A stretch of DNA of 49,530 nt from a virus (Duplodnaviria; Caudoviricetes). Each line of letters begins with the position of its first letter. Position 1 is the first letter of the stretch. The position numbers and the translations under genes were made by a program. Where the stretch lies: the IMG/VR virus record IMGVR_UViG_3300015050_000527, positions 1 through 49,530 of that record; one strand, written 5' to 3'. The notes beneath the pieces are model-generated. The model did no database searches and had not been told where the DNA came from. It saw nothing but the letters and a program-made list of their open reading frames with translations. Below, piece after piece: positions 6,497 to 36,025 of the stretch.

Positions 6497-6530
6497 AAGA
6501 GCCCTAGAGACGAAAGTTTCTAGGGCTCTT
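6497..6530 (+). terminator. intrinsic terminator-like hairpin
   Basis: AAGAGCCCTAGAGAC-GAAA-GTTTCTAGGGCTCTT. Confidence 0.7.
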
Positions 6531-6578
6531 GCTTGTTGTGCTGCAACAACATTAGTTGACTAATTTGATCAACAATGC

Positions 6579-6757
6579 TTTACAAACCAACACAACTCAT
6601 GTATACTATGTTCTGTTGAGTGAGAAATCATTCAACGTCAGAGGAAGAAGAAAGACTGACTAAAACAGTCAAGAATTCAGAAACCTCTTGACAAGATGCG
6701 GTGGATGATGTATACTGTATCTGTTGAGTGAGAAATCGCTCCAAGTTCTTTAAAAAT
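6579..6757 (+). promoter_or_regulatory. tandem sigma70 promoters P1/P2 plus boxA-like antiterminator driving the tRNA operon
   Basis: TTTACA-17-TATACT (6579-6607); TTGACA-17-TATACT (6688-6716); both followed by TCTGTTGAGTGAGAAATC; GTTCTTTAAAAA at 6745-6756. Confidence 0.75.
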
Positions 6758-6800
6758 TTGACGATCAGCATATGTTTCCCAGGGTTCTGAACTCTGGGTG

Positions 6801-7302
6801 CCATATTGAAATGCATTACAGGTTGGGTAGCATTCGCGGTGCTACTATTTGGGATGAAAAGCCGGCATGACTGCAGGGTAATAATCTAAGATACGCAGTG
6901 TGTTTCAATATGGTGTAAGCCAGTAAGAGCAGCGGTTTCTTTTCTAAGTTGAATCCAGTATGAGCAGCACGGTAAGCTAGCTAAATCCGTGGGCAGGCAA
7001 TAGTATCAAAATGTAACTTAGATGACAGCCAGGAAAGTCTGGCACCATATTGAAGCGCATTCTAAAACATAAAGATTTAGGATCATCAAGGGGTACTTTC
7101 AGCACATCCCCGAGTGTGCTTCAATATGGTGTAGCTTAATTCAAGAGCGGCGGGCACACAGGTTCAGACGTCTACCCGTGAAGTGCAGGTGCAAGTCCTG
7201 CCGCCATATTGAAACACATTGCTTGCCCGACCGTAAAAGTCGTGGTAAACTACTAGAGAAACAGGTTCGAATCCTGGGGACTGGCAGTGTGTTTCAATAT
7301 GG
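6801..7302 (+). repeat. alternating inverted-repeat array (CCATATTGAARCACATT / AGTGTGYTTCAATATGG) x3
   Basis: Arms at 6801-6817, 6897-6913, 7045-7062, 7112-7129, 7204-7222, 7284-7302. Confidence 0.9.
7125..7209 (+). ncRNA. tRNA-like element with 20-nt anticodon loop
   Basis: Acceptor TATGGTG/CGCCATA, D arm GCTT/GAGC, stem GCGGG/CCCGT, T arm GCAGG-TGCAAGT-CCTGC. Confidence 0.65.
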
Positions 7303-7315
7303 TAAAAGAAATGAT

Positions 7316-7402
7316 GGGTGTCGAGAAGCATTGGTGACTTCAGCAGACTGTAAATCTGTAGCCCCTAGGGGCAACGGGGTTCGAATCCCTGGACACCCAC
7401 CA
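7316..7402 (+). tRNA. tRNA-Tyr(GTA)
   Basis: Cloverleaf, loop CTGTAAA, long V arm, CCA. Confidence 0.9.
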
Positions 7403-7409
7403 AAAATTG

Positions 7410-7484
7410 ACCCGCGTAACTCAGTGGTAGAGTAGCGTCTTGATAAGGCGAAAGTCATTGGTTCAATCCCAATCGTGGGTACCA
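7410..7484 (+). tRNA. tRNA-Ile(GAT)
   Basis: Cloverleaf, loop TTGATAA, CCA. Confidence 0.88.
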
Positions 7485-7497
7485 CAAAAAGTTATTC

Positions 7498-7572
7498 GGG
7501 AGTATGGCGCAGTGGTAGCGCAGCGGACTTTTAATCCGTTGGTCGAGGGTTCGAATCCCTCTGCTCCTACCA
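7498..7572 (+). tRNA. tRNA-Lys(TTT)
   Basis: Cloverleaf, loop CTTTTAA, CCA. Confidence 0.92.
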
Positions 7573-7583
7573 AAAAAGAATTT

Positions 7584-7660
7584 GCGACTGTAACTCAGTG
7601 GATTAGAGTAACCGGCTTCTACCCGGTATGTCGGGGGTTCGAATCCCTCCAGTCGCACCA
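7584..7660 (+). tRNA. tRNA-Arg(TCT)
   Basis: Cloverleaf, loop CTTCTAC, CCA. Confidence 0.92.
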
Positions 7661-7664
7661 ATAG

Positions 7665-7694
7665 TTGACATCCAGTGTGATCCGTGTTATCATG
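7665..7694 (+). promoter_or_regulatory. internal sigma70 promoter in tRNA cluster
   Basis: TTGACA-17bp-TATCAT. Confidence 0.55.
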
Positions 7695-7768
7695 TGATCT
7701 CACTAAGAAAGGCACGATGAAGATCGCCAGATCCGAGTGCACCGGGGTTGTGGAATCTGCCTCGTAAT

Positions 7769-7843
7769 GCTTGATTAGCTCAGTGGTAGAGCGTCTCCTT
7801 TACACGGAGAGGGTCCGCGGTTCGATACCGTGATCAAGCACCA
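7769..7843 (+). tRNA. tRNA-Val(TAC)
   Basis: Cloverleaf, loop TTTACAC, CCA. Confidence 0.92.
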
Positions 7844-8041
7844 TTTAGTCTATTGTTAAGGAAAATTCCTGTGTTCACCAGGACAGTGAACTGTCAATGT
7901 CTCGGATGGTACCTCACAAGAGATATACAGTTTTGAATTGACGAATCGTGGATTTAGCGGTCCTAGCAATAAGCAATTCATAATAAAAGCAAACGATAGT
8001 AGGGCGATTGCTATCAATAACTTGACAATAGACTAAATGGT
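7840..8041 (+). ncRNA. putative ~200-nt structured ncRNA closed by a 21-bp stalk
   Basis: ACCATTTAGTCTATTGTTAAG pairs with CTTGACAATAGACTAAATGGT; no ORF inside. Confidence 0.55.
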
Positions 8042-8049
8042 AATAATTT

Positions 8050-8124
8050 GGCTTCAAAGTGTTCATGGACGCACACATGCCTGTCACGCATGTAGAAGGG
8101 GATCGTTACCCCTTGAAGCCGCCA
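8050..8124 (+). tRNA. tRNA-Asp(GTC), atypical T loop ATCGTTA
   Basis: GGCTTCA/TGAAGCC acceptor, loop CTGTCAC, G73, CCA. Confidence 0.82.
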
Positions 8125-8143
8125 CATATATAATAGCATAGTA

Positions 8144-8228
8144 GCCCCCTTGGCGGAATTGGTAAACGCACCAGATTTAGGTTCTGGCATCGAAAGGTTT
8201 GAGAGTTCGAGTCTCTTGGGGGGCACCA
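8144..8228 (+). tRNA. tRNA-Leu(TAG)
   Basis: Cloverleaf, loop TTTAGGT, long V arm, CCA. Confidence 0.9.
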
Positions 8229-8306
8229 TATTGAAGCACATTAGAACATGCCCCTAGTAGCAGTAGTGAATCAAGGGCAGAATGTTGAGTGTGCTTCAAT
8301 ATGGTG
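8224..8306 (+). repeat. fourth copy of the inverted-repeat stalk, fused to tRNA-Leu CCA
   Basis: CACCATATTGAAGCACATT ... GAGTGTGCTTCAATATGGTG. Confidence 0.88.
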
Positions 8307-8322
8307 AATAAATTAACACAAA

Positions 8323-8399
<77 letters not shown>

Positions 8400-8545
8400 A
8401 CATATATAAATGTATAACGACGATTCCTCCCACCAAAATGCACAGCATCGCTTTATGCTGTGGTAGGAATGCCTCTCAGTCCTAGGTCTGATGCATCTCA
8501 AACTACAACTAGAGTTCTAGCAAAAGAACATAGCACCAATTCAAT

Positions 8546-8578
8546 TCCTCAATAGCTCAGTCGGTAGAGCAACGCACT
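8546..8578 (+). pseudogene. 5' half of a tRNA (probably Asn) truncated at the anticodon loop
   Basis: TCCTCAATAGCTCAGTCGGTAGAGCAACGCACT followed by unrelated A-rich sequence; no matching 3' half. Confidence 0.75.
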
Positions 8579-8593
8579 CAGAAAACAAAAACA

Positions 8594-8601
8594 TATAAAT
8601 A
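8594..8601 (+). promoter_or_regulatory. T4-type late promoter
   Basis: TATAAATA upstream of endonuclease ORF with AGGAGG RBS. Confidence 0.7.
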
Positions 8602-8620
8602 ATAGCAGGAGGAAAACAAA

Positions 8621-9244
8621 ATGCTGTTATGTATATTCTGTAGTAAATCTTGTAAGAATGCAAACTCACTCAGAAACCATGAGAGATTGTGTCATTCTAA
8701 TCCAAATCGACAGATAAGTTCATTCTCCAAACAAGAGGTCAAAGATAAATTAAAGCCAACTAACGGAGCAATAAAGGCAAAACAGGAAGGGCGAGAATTT
8801 GTTTTCCCTGAAATCACCAGAAAAGCATTATCTGATGCTACATTAAATCGTACCGCTGAATGGCATAAAGAAAATGGTAAGAAAATCTCCAAAACAATAC
8901 AAGAAAAAGTATTAACTGGTGAGTGGCATACTTCTTTAGCTAAACATATGCACTATGAATATAATGGAGTTGATCTGCACGGAAAATGGGAAGTTGAATA
9001 CGCAAAATATCTGGACAGAAATGGGATAAAATGGGCGAGAAATAAAGACTCATTCGCATATACGTATGATGGAAAAGAGCGACGTTATACTCCAGATTTT
9101 TATCTCCCAGAAACTGATGAGTATGTAGAAATAAAAGGATATAAGACTGATAAAGACGAGACTAAGTGGGAACAATTTCCCAAACATCGAAAATTATTAG
9201 TGCTTATGAAACAAGAACTAGGATCTTTAGGAATAAAAACTTGA
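8621..9244 (+). mobile_element. free-standing homing endonuclease gene (Zn-finger + PD-(D/E)XK domain)
   Basis: CIFC...HERLC N-terminus; YTPDFYLP...YVEIKG catalytic motif; AT-rich; inserted in tRNA cluster. Confidence 0.8.
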
Positions 9245-9250
9245 TATTGC

Positions 9251-9325
9251 TGACCGATATCGTTCTAGGTGAGGCGAGTCTGACTGTTAATCAGAAATAG
9301 GTTGGTTCGAATCCAACTCGGTCAG
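9251..9325 (+). tRNA. divergent tRNA-Asn(GTT), no encoded CCA
   Basis: TGACCGA/TCGGTCA acceptor, TCTGA-CTGTTAA-TCAGA, GTTGG-TTCGAAT-CCAAC, G73. Confidence 0.8.
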
Positions 9326-9362
9326 CAATATCAAGACCAATATATAAAGAAAAGGAAAAATT

Positions 9363-9536
9363 ATGCAAAAGAAATGGTACATGTCAAAAACGGTTTGGGT
9401 CAACGCACTAGCTCTAGGAGCAGTGCTGCTACAAACTCAGTTTGGTTTTATTTTGACGCCTGAATTGCAGGCGATGGCATTGACTTTTATCAACCTTGGT
9501 CTACGTACAGTAACTAAGGAAGAAATCGTCTGGTAA
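9363..9536 (+). CDS. small 2-TM protein, holin-like (not in ORF track)
   Basis: MQKKWYMSKTVWVNALALGAVLLQTQFGFILTPELQAMALTFINLGLRTVTKEEIVW; AAGGA RBS. Confidence 0.65.
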   Translation: MQKKWYMSKTVWVNALALGAVLLQTQFGFILTPELQAMALTFINLGLRTVTKEEIVW

Positions 9537-9543
9537 AAAGTTT

Positions 9544-9619
9544 TGCGGGTAAGGTCTGGTCACTACTTCGGTCTCATAAGCCAGGAGCATCGCTGGTTCG
9601 AATCCAGCACCCGCAACCA
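9544..9619 (+). tRNA. tRNA-Met(CAT), initiator-like, atypical D and anticodon arms
   Basis: TGCGGGT/ACCCGCA acceptor, loop CTCATAA, canonical T arm, CCA; weak D stem and bulged anticodon stem. Confidence 0.65.
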
Positions 9620-9624
9620 ATATT

Positions 9625-9698
9625 GCCCCCATAGTTAAGTGGTATAACAGTTGCCTTGTAAGCATCAATTCCTAGTTCGATTCCAGGTGGGGGCACCA
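9625..9698 (+). tRNA. tRNA-Thr(TGT)
   Basis: Cloverleaf, loop CTTGTAA, CCA. Confidence 0.85.
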
Positions 9699-9758
9699 GT
9701 ATAAAATCGCGATGACACTCCGCGTACAATAGGATAAGTAGTGTGTCAACGAATTCAT

Positions 9759-9834
9759 GGGGGATTAGCACAGTTGGGAGTGCGCCTGCTTTGCAAGCAG
9801 GAGGTCGTCGGTTCGATCCCGTCATCCTCCACCA
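9759..9834 (+). tRNA. tRNA-Ala(TGC)
   Basis: G3.U70 identity pair, loop TTTGCAA, CCA. Confidence 0.92.
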
Positions 9835-9853
9835 AATATTATATGGAGTAAAA

Positions 9854-10039
9854 ATGAATGATGGCGGTAAAGGTTCAAAACCAAGACCATTCAGTATAAG
9901 TCAAGAAGAGTGGTCAAACAGATGGAATGCTATTTTCGCAAGGGACTTGCCTGATGAATTATCGAAAGTATTACCTGAAGCAAATTCTTCGATTGCTGAA
10001 AGCGAGTCTTCTGATGACAAAGGGAATGATTCTGAATAA
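9854..10039 (+). CDS. small phage protein (GGKGSKPRP family)
   Basis: GGAG RBS, MNDGGKGSKPRPFSISQEEWSNRWNAIF. Confidence 0.65.
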   Translation: MNDGGKGSKPRPFSISQEEWSNRWNAIFARDLPDELSKVLPEANSSIAESESSDDKGNDSE

Positions 10040-10050
10040 GAGAATTTAGT

Positions 10051-10124
10051 GTCTCGCTAGTGTAATGGCAGCATACGGGTCTCCAAAACCCTTGGTGGGA
10101 GTTCGAATCTCTCGCGGGATGCCA
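10051..10124 (+). tRNA. tRNA-Trp(CCA)
   Basis: Cloverleaf, loop CTCCAAA, G73, CCA. Confidence 0.88.
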
Positions 10125-10125
10125 A

Positions 10126-10133
10126 TATAAATA
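10126..10133 (+). promoter_or_regulatory. T4-type late promoter
   Basis: TATAAATA upstream of 10158 ORF. Confidence 0.65.
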
Positions 10134-10157
10134 ATCTTATTTGCATTGGAGATCATT

Positions 10158-10613
10158 ATGGCAACACAAACACTGATCATAGCGAACACTTCGCCCACAG
10201 TTGAAATCTACAGAGTAACTGATGGTGCAAACTCTTACATCATCGCACAAGATGGTTACTCAACAAACTCACCCAACACTGTATCGATTCAGATAGACTA
10301 TTCTCCTTTCCTTGAGAGAATAGCAACATCGCTTGAAACAATTGCAGTAGAAGTGTCAACTGCAAACTCATCTTATACTTTAGGTGAAAGTTTAGTTGGC
10401 ATGTGGTTAGCTATCAATAATCTTAGATTAGATGTTGGTGATCTTGTGCTTGAAGCTAACTCATCAACGCAGCATCTAAGTACAATAGCAAGCAACTTTG
10501 AAGTCGAAAGAGCGGTGAACGTATCCGAGATGAAATACGCAGATTACAATGATGACAACTTCGATAGACTAACTGTTGTTTCAAATGAAGTTCAAAATCC
10601 AACACAATTTTAA
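10158..10613 (+). CDS. late-expressed hypothetical (possibly virion) protein
   Basis: GGAG RBS, late promoter, S/T/N-rich acidic composition. Confidence 0.65.
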   Translation: MATQTLIIANTSPTVEIYRVTDGANSYIIAQDGYSTNSPNTVSIQIDYSPFLERIATSLETIAVEVSTANSSYTLGESLVGMWLAINNLRLDVGDLVLEANSSTQHLSTIASNFEVERAVNVSEMKYADYNDDNFDRLTVVSNEVQNPTQF

Positions 10614-10620
10614 ACACATT

Positions 10621-10694
10621 GCGGGGTTGGTATAGTGGTTGTGCTCTAGCCTTCCAAGCTAGTGAGACCGGTTCGATCCCGGTACCCCGCTCCA
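10621..10694 (+). tRNA. tRNA-Gly(TCC)
   Basis: GCGGGGT start, loop CTTCCAA, U73, CCA. Confidence 0.9.
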
Positions 10695-10724
10695 AAACCT
10701 AAGAGGTGTATCGTGTACTATAGA

Positions 10725-11207
10725 ATGAACATTGATGCGGTAAAAGATTTTATTATGAGTCAATCTCCAGAGACAAAGGTCTACATCGGTGGAGACTCTG
10801 AACGTATTCTTGTTAATGATGTATGGTACGCAGATTACACCCTTGCAGTAGTTGTTCACATTGATGGAAATCATGGATGTAAAATCTTCGGTGACGTTCA
10901 GCGTGAAAAAGACTACGAAAAGAACAAGAACAGACCTCGCATGAGACTGATGACTGAAGTCTATAAGATTTCAGAACTCTATCTTCGGCTTGCGGATGTT
11001 CTTGAAGATAGAGAAGTTGAAATTCATCTAGACATTAATCCCGATGAACGATACGGAAGCTCTTGCGTGGTGCAAGAAGCTGTTGGCTATATCAGAGGCA
11101 TGTGTAATGTGATCCCCATGGTTAAGCCAAAAGCGTTTGCAGCATCGTATTGTGCGGATAGACTAAAAGAAATCATGAACATGCAGCAACAAAAGATTGC
11201 TGCGTAA
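10725..11207 (+). CDS. RNase H-like YkuK family protein
   Basis: VYIGGDS, RLMTEV, EIHLDIN and KPKAFAASYCAD motifs. Confidence 0.8.
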   Translation: MNIDAVKDFIMSQSPETKVYIGGDSERILVNDVWYADYTLAVVVHIDGNHGCKIFGDVQREKDYEKNKNRPRMRLMTEVYKISELYLRLADVLEDREVEIHLDINPDERYGSSCVVQEAVGYIRGMCNVIPMVKPKAFAASYCADRLKEIMNMQQQKIAA

Positions 11208-11210
11208 AAC

Positions 11211-11239
11211 TTGACAGAGATTCGGTTCTCTGATACAAT
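11211..11239 (+). promoter_or_regulatory. sigma70 promoter
   Basis: TTGACA-17bp-TACAAT. Confidence 0.65.
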
Positions 11240-11284
11240 GAATTTCATTGATTGAATGTGATTTTTAACTATAAAGGTACTACT

Positions 11285-11722
11285 ATGAAGAAGATTGCTA
11301 TTGTTATTTCCATGATGTTTGCGGGTGCAGTAAGTGCCGCTGAAGTCTCCACTTCTTATGTGCATGACTATGAAACTGGTAAGAATGGTGCGCGAATTGA
11401 ACTGCCCGTCGGCAGTGTGTACGGCATCAAGCCCGTTCTCGGTGTCTCATACGTTGATGAGTCTTACACTCGCTACAGCGCAGGTGCAGATTATCAAGTT
11501 GTAAAGCTGGGTCCAGTCGCACTCTCAGTCGCGGGATCTGCTGTCTTTCAAGACTCACGCACAGGCAGTGATGGTTTTGGATTGACTGCTGGTGTCAAGG
11601 TATCAATGCCAGTGACTAAATCTGTTGATGTTGTTAGTCGAGTTGATCGATTCTTCGGTCAAAATCGAATCGCCGGCTTTGATGGGAACGTTGTCTCCGT
11701 CGGTCTAGCAGTGAAGTTCTGA
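11285..11722 (+). CDS. small outer-membrane beta-barrel protein
   Basis: Signal peptide ending AVSA; amphipathic beta strands; C-terminal VGLAVKF beta-signal. Confidence 0.75.
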   Translation: MKKIAIVISMMFAGAVSAAEVSTSYVHDYETGKNGARIELPVGSVYGIKPVLGVSYVDESYTRYSAGADYQVVKLGPVALSVAGSAVFQDSRTGSDGFGLTAGVKVSMPVTKSVDVVSRVDRFFGQNRIAGFDGNVVSVGLAVKF

Positions 11723-11760
11723 TTTAAATAAAAAAAACACCGCGGTGTTTTTTATACACA

Positions 11761-11847
11761 GGAAACGTGGCCGAGTGGTTTATGGCTCTAGTCTTGAAAA
11801 CTAGCGAAGGTTAACGCCTTCCGTGAGTTCGAATCTCACCGTTTCCG
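11761..11847 (+). tRNA. tRNA-Ser(TGA)
   Basis: Loop CTTGAAA, long V arm, G73; followed by CCG not CCA. Confidence 0.9.
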
Positions 11848-11862
11848 CCGCTCCGGGTTTTT

Positions 11863-11951
11863 AGTGAGTTGGATGAGTGGTTTAAATCGACACCCTGCTA
11901 AGGTGTTGTTCGTATAAACGCGAACCGTGGGTTCGAATCCCACACTCACTG
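11863..11951 (+). tRNA. tRNA-Ser(GCT)
   Basis: Loop CTGCTAA, long V arm, G73; followed by CCG. Confidence 0.9.
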
Positions 11952-11957
11952 CCGTTA

Positions 11958-11986
11958 TTGACAAGATATGATGTTTGTGATATAAT
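11958..11986 (+). promoter_or_regulatory. consensus sigma70 promoter
   Basis: TTGACA-17bp-TATAAT with extended TG. Confidence 0.75.
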
Positions 11987-11996
11987 GAACAAGTGC

Positions 11997-12073
11997 GCCC
12001 TGATGACGGAACTGGTATACGTGCGGGACTCAAAATCCCGATTCTGTGGGTTCGACTCCCACTTAGGGCACCA
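11997..12073 (+). tRNA. tRNA-Leu(CAA) with short variable loop
   Basis: Loop CTCAAAA, 5-nt variable region ATTCT, A73, CCA. Confidence 0.85.
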
Positions 12074-12082
12074 AAAGATTTC

Positions 12083-12161
12083 GGGCCGGTAGCTCATGTT
12101 TGGTTAGAGCAGCGTACTCATAATGCGTTGGTAGTGTGTTCGACTCACACCCGGCCTACCA
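12083..12161 (+). tRNA. tRNA(CAT), Ile2 or elongator Met
   Basis: Loop CTCATAA, GGGCCGG/CCGGCCT acceptor, CCA. Confidence 0.85.
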
Positions 12162-12181
12162 GTTATTGATATGTAAACTGT

Positions 12182-12273
12182 GGGAGCGAGACTTGGTAGT
12201 CAGGGAGTCCTTATAAGACTTTTAGCGCCAGATTAGCGTTCTTGAGAGGGTTCGATCCCCTCCGCTCCTACCA
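12182..12273 (+). tRNA. atypical tRNA(TAT), nominally Ile(UAU), with long V arm and 4-nt D loop
   Basis: GGGAGCG/CGCTCCT, GACT-TGGT-AGTC, loop CTTATAA, AGCGC/GCGTT extra arm, canonical T arm, ACCA. Confidence 0.75.
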
Positions 12274-12282
12274 ACCGAATAT

Positions 12283-12367
12283 GCTCCGATGGCGTAATAG
12301 GTAGCCGCAACGGACTTAAAATTCGTTATCGAAAGGTGTGCCGGTTCGATTCCGGCTCGGAGCACCA
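12283..12367 (+). tRNA. tRNA-Leu(TAA)
   Basis: Loop CTTAAAA, long V arm, CCA. Confidence 0.9.
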
Positions 12368-12373
12368 ATATAT

Positions 12374-12448
12374 GCACGGGTGGCAGAGTGGTCCAATGCA
12401 CAGGATTGCAAATCCCGATAACCGTGAGTTCGAATCTCACCCCGTGTT
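12374..12448 (+). tRNA. tRNA-Cys(GCA)
   Basis: Loop TTGCAAA, U73; followed by CCC. Confidence 0.82.
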
Positions 12449-12587
12449 CCCTGTTATGTTCTTGTGATAAGACGCTGTTGCACAAAGACAACACACACAA
12501 AATAACAGTTGACTCTATTGCTTTTATATGATAAAATTGATGTGTTGACAATTGTAATCAACACAACACAAATCAAAAGGAAATTGA

Positions 12588-34626: not shown

Positions 34627-34777
34627 AGGTTGGAACTTATGGGCTAAAGCTCTTGGTGAAAAGCAAGGCAAAACAGACTCTGACGCGGACATCATCGCTA
34701 TCATAAGAACTACAATTTTAGCTGTCTATATAATAACGAATATTTTTATCATTGCTGGTGTCTTACGACACTGGTAA
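34619..34777 (+). CDS. conserved small membrane protein
   Basis: WAKALGEK...AD..A.IRT...N.FI.AGV.RHW motif. Confidence 0.65.
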   Translation: MNRGWNLWAKALGEKQGKTDSDADIIAIIRTTILAVYIITNIFIIAGVLRHW

Positions 34778-34782
34778 ATTAT

Positions 34783-35080
34783 GATCGTATGAAGTAAATC
34801 AAAAAGTGTTCTGGACGCGGGTTCGATTCCCGCCAGCTCCACCAAAAGCATATTCTTTGAGGTCTTGATCGTTACCTGCGTAGCAAAAACGGTGACAGAG
34901 TATGCTTTTGATGGGGCTGACCTGGTTTCGACAGGGCAACAAGTAGAGGAATGGACGATCCAGTAGGCGATGACTGTAAATCAAGCAAACCACGTAAATG
35001 CAAACGACGAAAAGTTCGCATTAGCCGCCTAAACTCGGCTTAGGGTTTCGGTGGGTTTCCTCGTAACAGAATAACCCACC
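34783..35080 (+). ncRNA. ssrA: circularly permuted (two-piece) tmRNA, tag ANDEKFALAA
   Basis: GACGCGGGTTCGATTCCCGCCAGCTCCACCA (ends 34844) precedes GGGGCTGACCTGGTTTCGAC (starts 34913); tag ORF 35000-35032. Confidence 0.9.
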
Positions 35081-35101
35081 ACCATCAACTGGAAATATAT
35101 C

Positions 35102-36025
35102 ATGCAAACTTTGCTTATATCGAACAATCACGAAGACTACACAGGCGGTGGTACTTACGTGATGATGATCCTCAATGTTCTAAAAAAATACTACAAAATT
35201 TACACTGACAAGAACGTAGGCTATTACACTGCGCACAATACTCCATGGAGATTGGACGTTGATGAAATCAGTCTAGCTGATTCTTCTCTAGTTCCAGATG
35301 TACATCTCTTAGCTGATTACTGGGGATGGACACATCCGCGCGGTAAGCTCAATGCGCAGATTGTGTACTATCCTCAACCAAAAAAGATTGATGGATGGAA
35401 CAAGTTCTTTGCGCTGAACGAATTTTGTAAAGAAGTTATTGATAGACTGTACTCAACAGACAGTCACATCATAACACCGTACTTTGATGCATCTGAGTTT
35501 CACATAAAAGAAAAAAGAAACACGATCATCAACATCGGACAATACTTCATCGATCCAGATGGACACAGCAAGAATCAACATGCGATAGCTGAATGGTTTA
35601 AGTCTCAGACAGATTTTGAGACCCTTGTCTTTCATGGCAAGATGACAAACCAGAACTACTATCAGCATGTTGTCAATTCAGCTAAAGGTGATCCTAGGAT
35701 CATAGTGAAATGTAATAGAAGTCAAATCGAAATTAGGAATGATCTCGCACAATCAAAATATATGGTTCATGCGATTGGTCTAGGAAGAACAGATCCATCT
35801 CAGACTGAACACTTCGGACTCGTTGCAGTAGAAGCACTTCTGAGTGGATGTTTACCTATTGTGCATAACTCTGGTGGTTGCAAAGACATCCCAGGTGTGT
35901 TATCATATAACAATCTGTCTGAGATAACTTTTCCAAAAGCTGATCCAGAAGCACTCAGAACACTAGGATTAAAGTTCAGTATAGATAATACAGAGAAGCA
36001 ACTGTTAGGAGCAATAAATGGATAA
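35102..36025 (+). CDS. glycosyltransferase, GT-B/GT4-like
   Basis: HSKNQH and EHFGLVAVEALLSGCLPIVHNSGG (ExFGx6E) motif. Confidence 0.82.
   Translation: MQTLLISNNHEDYTGGGTYVMMILNVLKKYYKIYTDKNVGYYTAHNTPWRLDVDEISLADSSLVPDVHLLADYWGWTHPRGKLNAQIVYYPQPKKIDGWNKFFALNEFCKEVIDRLYSTDSHIITPYFDASEFHIKEKRNTIINIGQYFIDPDGHSKNQHAIAEWFKSQTDFETLVFHGKMTNQNYYQHVVNSAKGDPRIIVKCNRSQIEIRNDLAQSKYMVHAIGLGRTDPSQTEHFGLVAVEALLSGCLPIVHNSGGCKDIPGVLSYNNLSEITFPKADPEALRTLGLKFSIDNTEKQLLGAING

Follow-up and report, generated by a model that had tools for sequence, protein, structure and literature searches.

A conserved tRNA-shaped RNA with predicted RNase III processing in a shuffled tRNA array of an uncultured T4-like phage

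The job of the stable RNAs that accompany tRNAs in phage tRNA clusters without being tRNAs themselves, such as species 1 and 2 of T4, has been open for decades. Small phage RNAs can also act through base pairing, as in the C4-type antisense RNA, whose loop is complementary to targets repeated at the ribosome-binding sites of the phage. Candidate phage RNAs are also catalogued in supplements to papers, which may list RNAs like those described here; in the literature that we searched, we found no description of the hairpin cassette motif, the tRNA-like family, or the cut register reported below. Two further strands of work bear on this locus. The early RNA of T7 is described as carrying five RNase III processing signals (PMC3867540), and jumbo phages are described as investing in tRNA repair against tRNA-targeting defences (PMC7824862).

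Here we analyze a 49,530-nt stretch of viral DNA (IMG/VR record IMGVR_UViG_3300015050_000527), referred to as the window, in which a tRNA-like element at 7125-7208 lies among repeated hairpins at the head of a tRNA cluster. Judged by comparison with related sequences, the element is a real, conserved, and uncatalogued RNA in a shuffled array, and its processing is predicted.

The phage and the head of its tRNA array

The window is a 27% complete fragment of an uncultured T4-like phage genome, an assignment resting on its T4-type RNase H, single-stranded DNA-binding protein, helicase loader, baseplate hub, and PhoH. Relatives of the single-stranded DNA-binding protein, at approximately 55% identity, are spread over cyanophages, the Methylophilales phage Melnitz, and the Pelagibacter phage HTVC008M. 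A blastn search of cultured phages with positions 6500-7450 gave no match, and searches with 7190-7310, 7120-7212, 8222-8310, and two related elements from other loci (L167 and L173) gave only short or ordinary-tRNA matches.

ARAGORN places a cluster of 21 tRNA genes at 7316..12450 on the plus strand, and the tRNA-like element stands at its head on the same strand. Upstream, also on the plus strand, are two predicted sigma70-type promoters, TTTACA-17-TATACT at 6579..6607 (10 of 12 consensus positions) and TTGACA-17-TATACT at 6688..6716 (11 of 12), followed at 6745..6755 by a predicted boxA-like antitermination site that matches all 11 positions of GYTCTTTAANA as given in PMC5725501. Among 59 loci, 13 have a boxA-like 9-mer in the sense orientation no more than 300 nt from the first tRNA or stem, and none has one in the antisense orientation.

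Behind these signals, four copies of repeat A (CCATATTGAARCRCA) alternate with four copies of its complement, and each repeat A pairs with the next complement downstream. The resulting units, referred to as hairpin cassettes, consist of a CCAUA...UAUGG stem and a variable head, and all lie on the plus strand. Cassette 1 occupies 6801..6913 (18/19 pairs; head relatives in L025 and L160), cassette 2 occupies 7043..7131 (20/20 pairs, z -7.4; head identical in L053 and L135), and cassette 3 occupies 7204..7302 (19/19 pairs, z -6.2; head relatives in L025, L042, and L052). Cassette 4 (8224..8306; 19/19 pairs) begins at the CCA of a tRNA-Leu, and its head recurs in other phages behind tRNA-Glu, tRNA-Arg, tRNA-Gln, and non-tRNAs. 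A divergent-stem cassette at 7841..8040 (plus strand; head relatives in four loci) begins at the CCA of a tRNA-Val and scores weakly against the RNase III consensus (7 and 6 of 16). Between cassettes 1 and 2, a structured RNA outside the tRNA-like family is a predicted product (6909..7051, plus strand, ends inferred from the cut register), the middle part of which is related to L041 and L160.

Several other features of the window deserve mention in their own right. A tRNA-Asn at 9240-9335 sits inside a perfect 18-bp inverted repeat that lengthens its acceptor and is possibly another processing stem. A free-standing structured RNA with a CCA end at 8430-8540 is 80 to 86% identical in L013, L021, L046, and L067 and has no Rfam match, and a long tRNA at 12182-12273, with a UAU anticodon, a short D arm, and a long variable arm, has only a weak tRNA-Sec match. 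An endonuclease gene at 8621-9244, between tRNA-Pro and tRNA-Asn, resembles the homing endonucleases of phage tRNA clusters. The ARAGORN tmRNA call at 34752-35134 has an implausible tag and is probably spurious.

A tRNA-like element with a 20-nt loop

The acceptor stem of the element pairs TATGGTG (7125-7131) with CGCCATA (7202-7208) at seven of seven positions, one of them a G.U. It is followed by a D stem (GCTT/GAGC) with the loop AATTCAA, a stem GCGGG/CCCGT closing a 20-nt loop (7155..7174, plus strand) in place of the anticodon loop, a variable loop GAAGT, and a T stem (GCAGG/CCTGC) with the loop TGCAAGT; bases 73 to 75 are TTG. The initial annotation had read from the sequence a full set of cloverleaf arms (7-bp acceptor, D, 5-bp anticodon stem, 5-nt variable loop, and T), a 20-nt loop, a D loop without GG, the T loop TGCAAGT, and an acceptor not ending in NCCA, and all of this is present. 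It had also expected a pseudogene call or none from tRNA finders, and ARAGORN indeed made no call at 7125-7208, while Rfam returned no match to the element at E<=1. A cloverleaf descriptor recovers the element; over 901 kb of loci it returns 413 unique cloverleaves in all, whereas 851,636 bases of shuffled sequence from tRNA regions yield none. The cloverleaf is therefore not a chance fold. Set against a canonical tRNA, the 7-bp acceptor, D, anticodon, and T stems are present, but the 7-nt U33 anticodon loop is replaced by 20 nt with A at position 33, and the elbow formed by G18G19 and T-psi-C is absent. Since a CAU tRNA with a normal anticodon loop (L188) likewise lacks GG and carries the T loop TGCAAGT, these two features alone cannot rule out decoding.

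Pattern scans of viral records yielded six distinct versions of the element, counting the window copy. An acceptor-plus-T-arm pattern gave two matches, both members and identical in sequence (L165 and L166); a loop pattern gave three, including one new member (L167); and a D-arm pattern gave six, all cloverleaves and three of them new (L173, L174, and L175). Two stricter patterns matched nothing, another matched only the window itself (L163) and two chance stretches of unrelated DNA (L162 and L164), and a last one gave six matches, two belonging to another tRNA-like family and four lacking a tRNA or paired stem. A covariance model scored the members at 71 to 101 bits, these being its own training set, and ordinary tRNAs at no more than 45, the best of which (40 to 45 bits) were of CAU, Trp, and Ile types. 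It found no new member above 70 bits in 100 sources or 50 whole records, with loci after L096 covered where their record was among the 50, and the family is thus rare. Only the distant L173 scores as RF00005 (39.8 bits). A stretch of the cultured Rhizobium phage RHph_I1_18 (L177) was considered as a member and rejected, at 42 bits in the range of ordinary tRNAs and with five of seven acceptor pairs. This unannotated tRNA-like gene, at 561-635 of L177, stands at the head of the phage's tRNA cluster, without GG and with the loop CACAAGG and a GCCA end.

Taking the window copy as reference structure, 124 of 126 stem cells are paired across the six versions, and two-sided changes occur at 13 of 21 pairs, including all seven acceptor pairs. 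None of 500 shuffles reached 124/126 with 13 changes, and slid controls paired at 40 to 51%. The bases U8, A9, A14, A15, U48, U54, and A58 are kept in six of six versions, and the half of the molecule formed by the D arm, T arm, and acceptor is the best kept. Invariance of the D arm is in part by construction, as this arm was the search pattern for three of the six versions; L165 and L167, found without it, match the D arm at 16 of 17 and 17 of 17 bases. The scaffold that the initial annotation proposed to be conserved is therefore conserved, and the random decay of stems by which it would have recognized an ordinary tRNA pseudogene did not occur. On this comparative evidence, the cloverleaf at 7125-7208 is real and under selection.

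The element also occurs in assembled contigs of sequencing runs X1 and X2 (wetland) and X3 (freshwater), with two, six, and seven differences, respectively, the last over 58 bases. In other contigs of runs X1 and X2, from close relatives of the phage, the sequence jumps from 6817 to 7305, and from 6787 or 6818 to 7286; the element is therefore missing, and one cassette stands where the window has three. Absence of the whole segment from close relatives would fit a decaying tRNA pseudogene, as would the G.U pairs that the window copy has where relatives have standard pairs and its misfolding: folded alone, its minimum-energy structure is not the cloverleaf, whereas the cloverleaf is the minimum in four of the six versions (L165, L167, L173, and L174). 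Decay is barely credible, however, with only two of 126 cells unpaired, both in distant versions, and two-sided changes at 13 pairs.

Not all versions are tied to the hairpins. L167, L173, and L174 are free-standing, have unrelated acceptor sequences, and end in ACC, GCCA, and AGA, respectively; two close versions are free-standing with ordinary acceptor stems. The acceptor of L167 is a wholly different 7-bp stem followed by ACC, with no cassette stems, and this copy has protein genes on both sides and no tRNA closer than 1.5 kb. L165 comes after a different stem type, L175 lies between variant stems, and the complete genome G048 has a version of the RNA and no CCATA...TATGG stem. The free-standing versions and the stemless G048 indicate that the tRNA-like RNA is an independent unit able to plug into the array.

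The loop is 20 nt long with the pattern ACACAGG...ACG.CTA in the four closest versions, whereas L174 has a loop of 16 nt and L173 one of 10 nt; two versions with the conserved loop, L165 and L175, were retrieved by patterns blind to it. The expectation that the scaffold would be kept while the loop varied is thus borne out for the stems, and for the loop only in the distant versions. A possible inner stem, AGGU/GYCU, could form within the loop: T7171 is C in three of three contigs and in L165 and L167, which turns a G.U into a G-C pair and favors AGGU/GCCU, but the stem is broken in L175. A likeness of the loop's ACAGG to a CsrA site was considered and dropped, as GGA is absent.

Positions 34 to 36 read CAC in four versions and AAC in L174, both valine anticodons, and could suggest a functional if atypical tRNA, such as a tRNA-Val interrupted by a 13-nt intron following position 37; the ACC and GCCA ends of L167 and L173 point the same way. 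Yet position 33 is A in those five versions, no bulge-helix-bulge shape is present, the window already has a tRNA-Val(UAC), and the discriminator base varies (T, A, or G). To our knowledge, moreover, bacteria lack a tRNA splicing endonuclease. We regard a working tRNA-Val as very improbable. The core tertiary bases are kept and the U33 loop is not, which makes decoding unlikely; the RNA very probably does not decode, in agreement with the initial annotation.

The same annotation suggested that the tRNA frame displays a guide or antisense loop. Such a loop would pair with host or phage RNA in the manner of the phage P1 C4 RNA. Conservation of the partly single-stranded loop core fits this proposal insofar as a fixed host target would also conserve the loop. 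The comparison covered the window and two complete genomes (G048 and G049), in which perfect 7-nt complements to the loop occur in 1 of 123, 4 of 343, and 2 of 422 phage start regions, all below the shuffled means, and the longest complements genome-wide are 9 to 10 nt, the same as for shuffled loops. The element therefore does not share the excess of complementarity at phage start regions that marks C4-type RNAs, and it has no Rfam match. Being fixed in the four closest versions and giving no sign of antisense pairing with these phage genes, the loop does not behave as a variable guide, and we consider antisense action improbable. The alternative use offered for the loop was as a sponge for host anticodon nucleases. 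These enzymes read U33 and the shape of a 7-nt anticodon loop; with both lacking, any decoy would more likely act via the D, T, and acceptor half.

Hairpin cassettes and predicted processing

The 3' arm of cassette 2 also supplies the 5' strand of the tRNA-like acceptor stem. The initial annotation saw the acceptor continuing for approximately 12 bp into the repeat. Such an extension is feasible, with 11 of 12 additional positions paired and a single C.A mismatch, but its arms belong to two separate hairpins, 7043-7131 and 7204-7302, each better paired internally, and among the six versions it is possible only in the window and L175. With both neighbors present, constrained ensemble energies are -106.6 kcal/mol with the cassettes closed, -95.0 kcal/mol with the extended acceptor, a deficit of about 11, and -90.8 kcal/mol with the 7-bp acceptor and inner stems. 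The extension is better read as the arms of neighboring processing stems. In a whole-array equilibrium fold the acceptor has a pair probability of 0.0; cassette 3 pairs there with the arms of cassette 1 rather than with itself, which leaves the exact fold of the precursor uncertain.

Scans with cassette patterns hit 25, 6, and at least 128 viral loci (approximately 200 estimated) and two contigs of genome bins. Of 160 sequences, 139 had tRNAs that fixed their orientation, and the other 21 were set aside. The matches listed hold 219 unique cassettes and 87 unique inter-cassette segments. At position +17, which lies outside the search pattern, repeat A pairs with the downstream arm in 0.82 of 219 cases and with the upstream arm in 0.46 of 87; the stems thus form with the next arm downstream rather than enclosing the RNA body between cassettes. 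A cassette starts at the CCA of a tRNA called by ARAGORN in 92 of the 219 cases, 88 of 1,094 unique tRNAs are followed by a cassette, and the heads fall into 167 clusters, the largest of which (nine heads) is found behind tRNA-Glu, tRNA-Arg, tRNA-Gln, tRNA-Leu, and non-tRNAs. One locus, L028, has the same head twice, behind a tRNA-Leu and behind a non-tRNA. The head of cassette 4 (8243-8287) covaries across nine copies and keeps an AGUA/GAA internal loop, which resembles a bulged-G motif. For 20 cassette-rich loci, the 150 of 191 Rfam matches listed include tRNAs, GOLLD, tmRNA, and a group I intron; none of those listed assigns the cassettes to a family.

This distribution invites the explanation that the stems are the termini of mobile hairpin DNA elements, or else serve as a handle for some phage protein such as an RNase H-like one, with the tRNA-like gene merely lying between two of them. 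One head stands behind different tRNAs and twice in L028, and close relatives have one cassette against the three of the window. The commonest cassette neighbor is PF04308 (20 of 81 loci, 20 of 50 records, and 7 of 10 complete records), which in the window is an RNase H-like gene within the tRNA cluster (10722-11207), a candidate trimming enzyme. However, the G.U pairs of the stems fit the plus strand only, conservation falls on the positions specified by the RNase III consensus, the window proteins scanned include no transposase or recombinase family, and recombination between identical stems can account for the shuffling. Ro60 was detected in 1 of 50 records. We judge this explanation distinctly unlikely. 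Readings as mobile DNA with a TA duplication, as attC-like sites, and as REP-like elements were considered and set aside.

The alternative is that the stems are processing sites, as their fit to RNase III suggests. The E. coli consensus, WNAGWGNNCWUNNN^NAWGNNCWCUNW, is a weak one as published (PMC4357697); a single set of proximal and distal boxes is reported to be enough to position cleavage (PMC1540722). E. coli sites mapped more recently are described as not matching the consensus perfectly (PMC5371410), and another account gives the distal box as not conserved across species and the ideal substrate as 22 bp (PMC3867540). We scored the stems against this E. coli consensus at 19 registers with 2-nt 3' overhangs. 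One register is best in 218 of the 219 stems (mean match, 0.70 versus 0.26 to 0.45), although these stems share descent, were mostly retrieved with the core motif, and come close to one observation. In that register both boxes are present, weak as the consensus is, and the conserved U.G and U-A pairs at +15/+16 on the inner end correspond to the "UA/UG" distal box described in PMC1540722. The helix length is likewise appropriate at about 20 bp (20/20 and 19/19 pairs in the cassettes flanking the element), with an outer half of 5 to 7 bp rather than the ideal 11. In a set of 52 stems divergent from the core, variation is greatest at the two positions flanking the predicted cut, and the consensus G at +10 is kept in only 18 and the C at +13 in only 26.

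The best register would cut CCAUAUU^GAA and UUCAA^UAUGG, which in cassette 2 corresponds to predicted cuts at 7051|7052 and 7124|7125. Positions 7113-7128 of this cassette match 10 of 10 specified consensus positions, and the 3'-arm cut would fall exactly at base 1 of the tRNA-like acceptor (7125). Inter-cassette segments as a class show no excess of closure, with 26% of 87 closing by at least seven pairs versus 24% for shuffled ends. In 5 of the 87, a T arm lies where it would in a tRNA. Two further tRNA-like families located between stems likewise start at UAUG, one of them (L025) with a compensated TATGATG/CGTCATA stem. These families, in L017/L020 (97 nt) and in L025/L028/L031 (153 nt), have large inserts in the anticodon arm, and their acceptors are built from junction sequence. 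A phage RNase III was found in 0 of 50 records and 0 of 10 complete ones, and a CCA-adding enzyme in 0 of 50 records, most of which are fragments; host enzymes are therefore implied. In one RNA run, searched as assembled contigs like the rest of the 23 runs listed, no contig covered 7122-7212.

Taken together, the predicted signals and modeled folds make it probable that the two sigma70 promoters and boxA would drive an rRNA-operon-like transcript in which each cassette folds as a 19- to 20-bp stem, burying the acceptor strands in the precursor. Host RNase III would cut each stem at the two sites given above, and cuts in both neighboring cassettes would free an 86-nt RNA (7125..7210, plus strand, ends predicted) comprising the cloverleaf and a 2-nt 3' overhang. 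This RNA would have its 7-bp acceptor from the first base and a UU overhang, and the cloverleaf would fold only then. The ordinary tRNAs of the array would be left with CCA plus four bases for trimming.

The tRNA shape could instead be only a cutting signal for RNase P or a 3' nuclease, similar to a t-element, with the released piece having no job of its own. Preferential conservation of the D, T, and acceptor half would suit such a signal, as would the copy in L167, between protein genes and with no tRNA nearby. But the loop sequence, unneeded for cutting, is kept in four versions, and in the window precursor the cassette stems conceal the acceptor. We find this unlikely, and we prefer release of the element as an RNA with a function of its own.

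Possible function and comparison with known systems

In the reading that we favor, the element is a conserved, anticodon-less, tRNA-shaped RNA that is released by RNase III, does not decode, and binds a host tRNA-handling protein via its D, T, and acceptor half; as a whole, this model has about an even chance of being right. The lack of excess loop complementarity makes a protein partner the best guess. As an early RNA from strong promoters that is tRNA-like at the elbow and acceptor, it might occupy a nuclease, transferase, or sensor with which the host acts on tRNA. That it serves specifically as a decoy or competitor for a tRNA-targeting defense enzyme or a tRNA sensor is a guess, which could equally well prove right or wrong. 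If so, it would represent an RNA-based counter-defense against tRNA-targeting immunity. A more speculative extension, doubtful but conceivable, is a modular arsenal in which swappable RNA cassettes share one standard RNase III site and the cut itself builds the acceptors of anti-defense tRNA decoys; if true, this would be a natural counterpart of engineered tRNA-gRNA arrays. The tRNA-like RNAs form a defined family that is backed by covariation and has ends predicted to the base. Mapping the cuts would fix the ends of approximately 200 cassettes and of the RNAs between them at once, and the standard junction could serve as a tool for obtaining several small RNAs from one transcript.

Among tRNA-derived forms, the element shares with canonical tRNA (RF00005) the common 7/5 acceptor branch, a 4-bp D stem, a 5-bp anticodon stem, and the core tertiary bases; it differs in having no 7-nt U33 loop, no G18G19, and no encoded CCA after the window stem. 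Allo-tRNAs of the 8/4 and 9/3 types are described as having a longer acceptor, a shorter T stem, and a long variable arm (PMC5389517, PMC7609411), and the 7/5 branch and 4- to 5-nt variable loop of our family set it apart from the form given in PMC5389517. YrlA (RF02553), as described in PMC4201824, is also non-decoding and phage-borne and keeps the D arm, T arm, and Levitt pair. In that description YrlA is permuted, with a closed acceptor, a GNCGAA Ro60-binding motif, and a nearby Ro60 gene, whereas the window RNA has normal tRNA topology. The element has no RF02553 match, and no Ro60 gene lies near it in this 27% complete fragment; the single record with Ro60 among the 50 has a separate YrlA-like RNA. 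Within 7 kb, positions 1-6991 of L189 (which contains L173) hold a Ro60 gene and a YrlA-like RNA, together with a distant member of the family and a second tRNA-like RNA, which has a 15-nt loop.

Species 1 and 2 of T4 (rnaC and rnaD; NC_000866) are small stable RNAs other than tRNAs and, like the element, belong to the tRNA cluster of a phage of the T4 type. Their matches to 7125-7208 are only 7 to 9 nt long, so that similarity does not place the element with them, and the T4 tRNA region has no cassette stem motif. The head of cassette 3 (7221-7286) does resemble rnaC, with 79% identity over 33 nt that include a T arm, and is possibly a truncated form related to species 1 RNA.

The closest parallels to the array as a whole are T7 early RNA and the rRNA operons. 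Both have stems of approximately 20 bp with the E. coli consensus and a UA/UG distal box, as the cassettes do, although cleavage here is predicted. The rRNA operons with boxA (PMC5725501) are further matched by the tandem sigma70 promoters and perfect boxA upstream of the window array. The products of T7 and rRNA processing are mRNAs and rRNA, whereas the window array would give tRNAs and many small RNAs, from stems that, unlike those of T7 and the rRNA operons, start at a CCA end and are repeated as a swappable unit.
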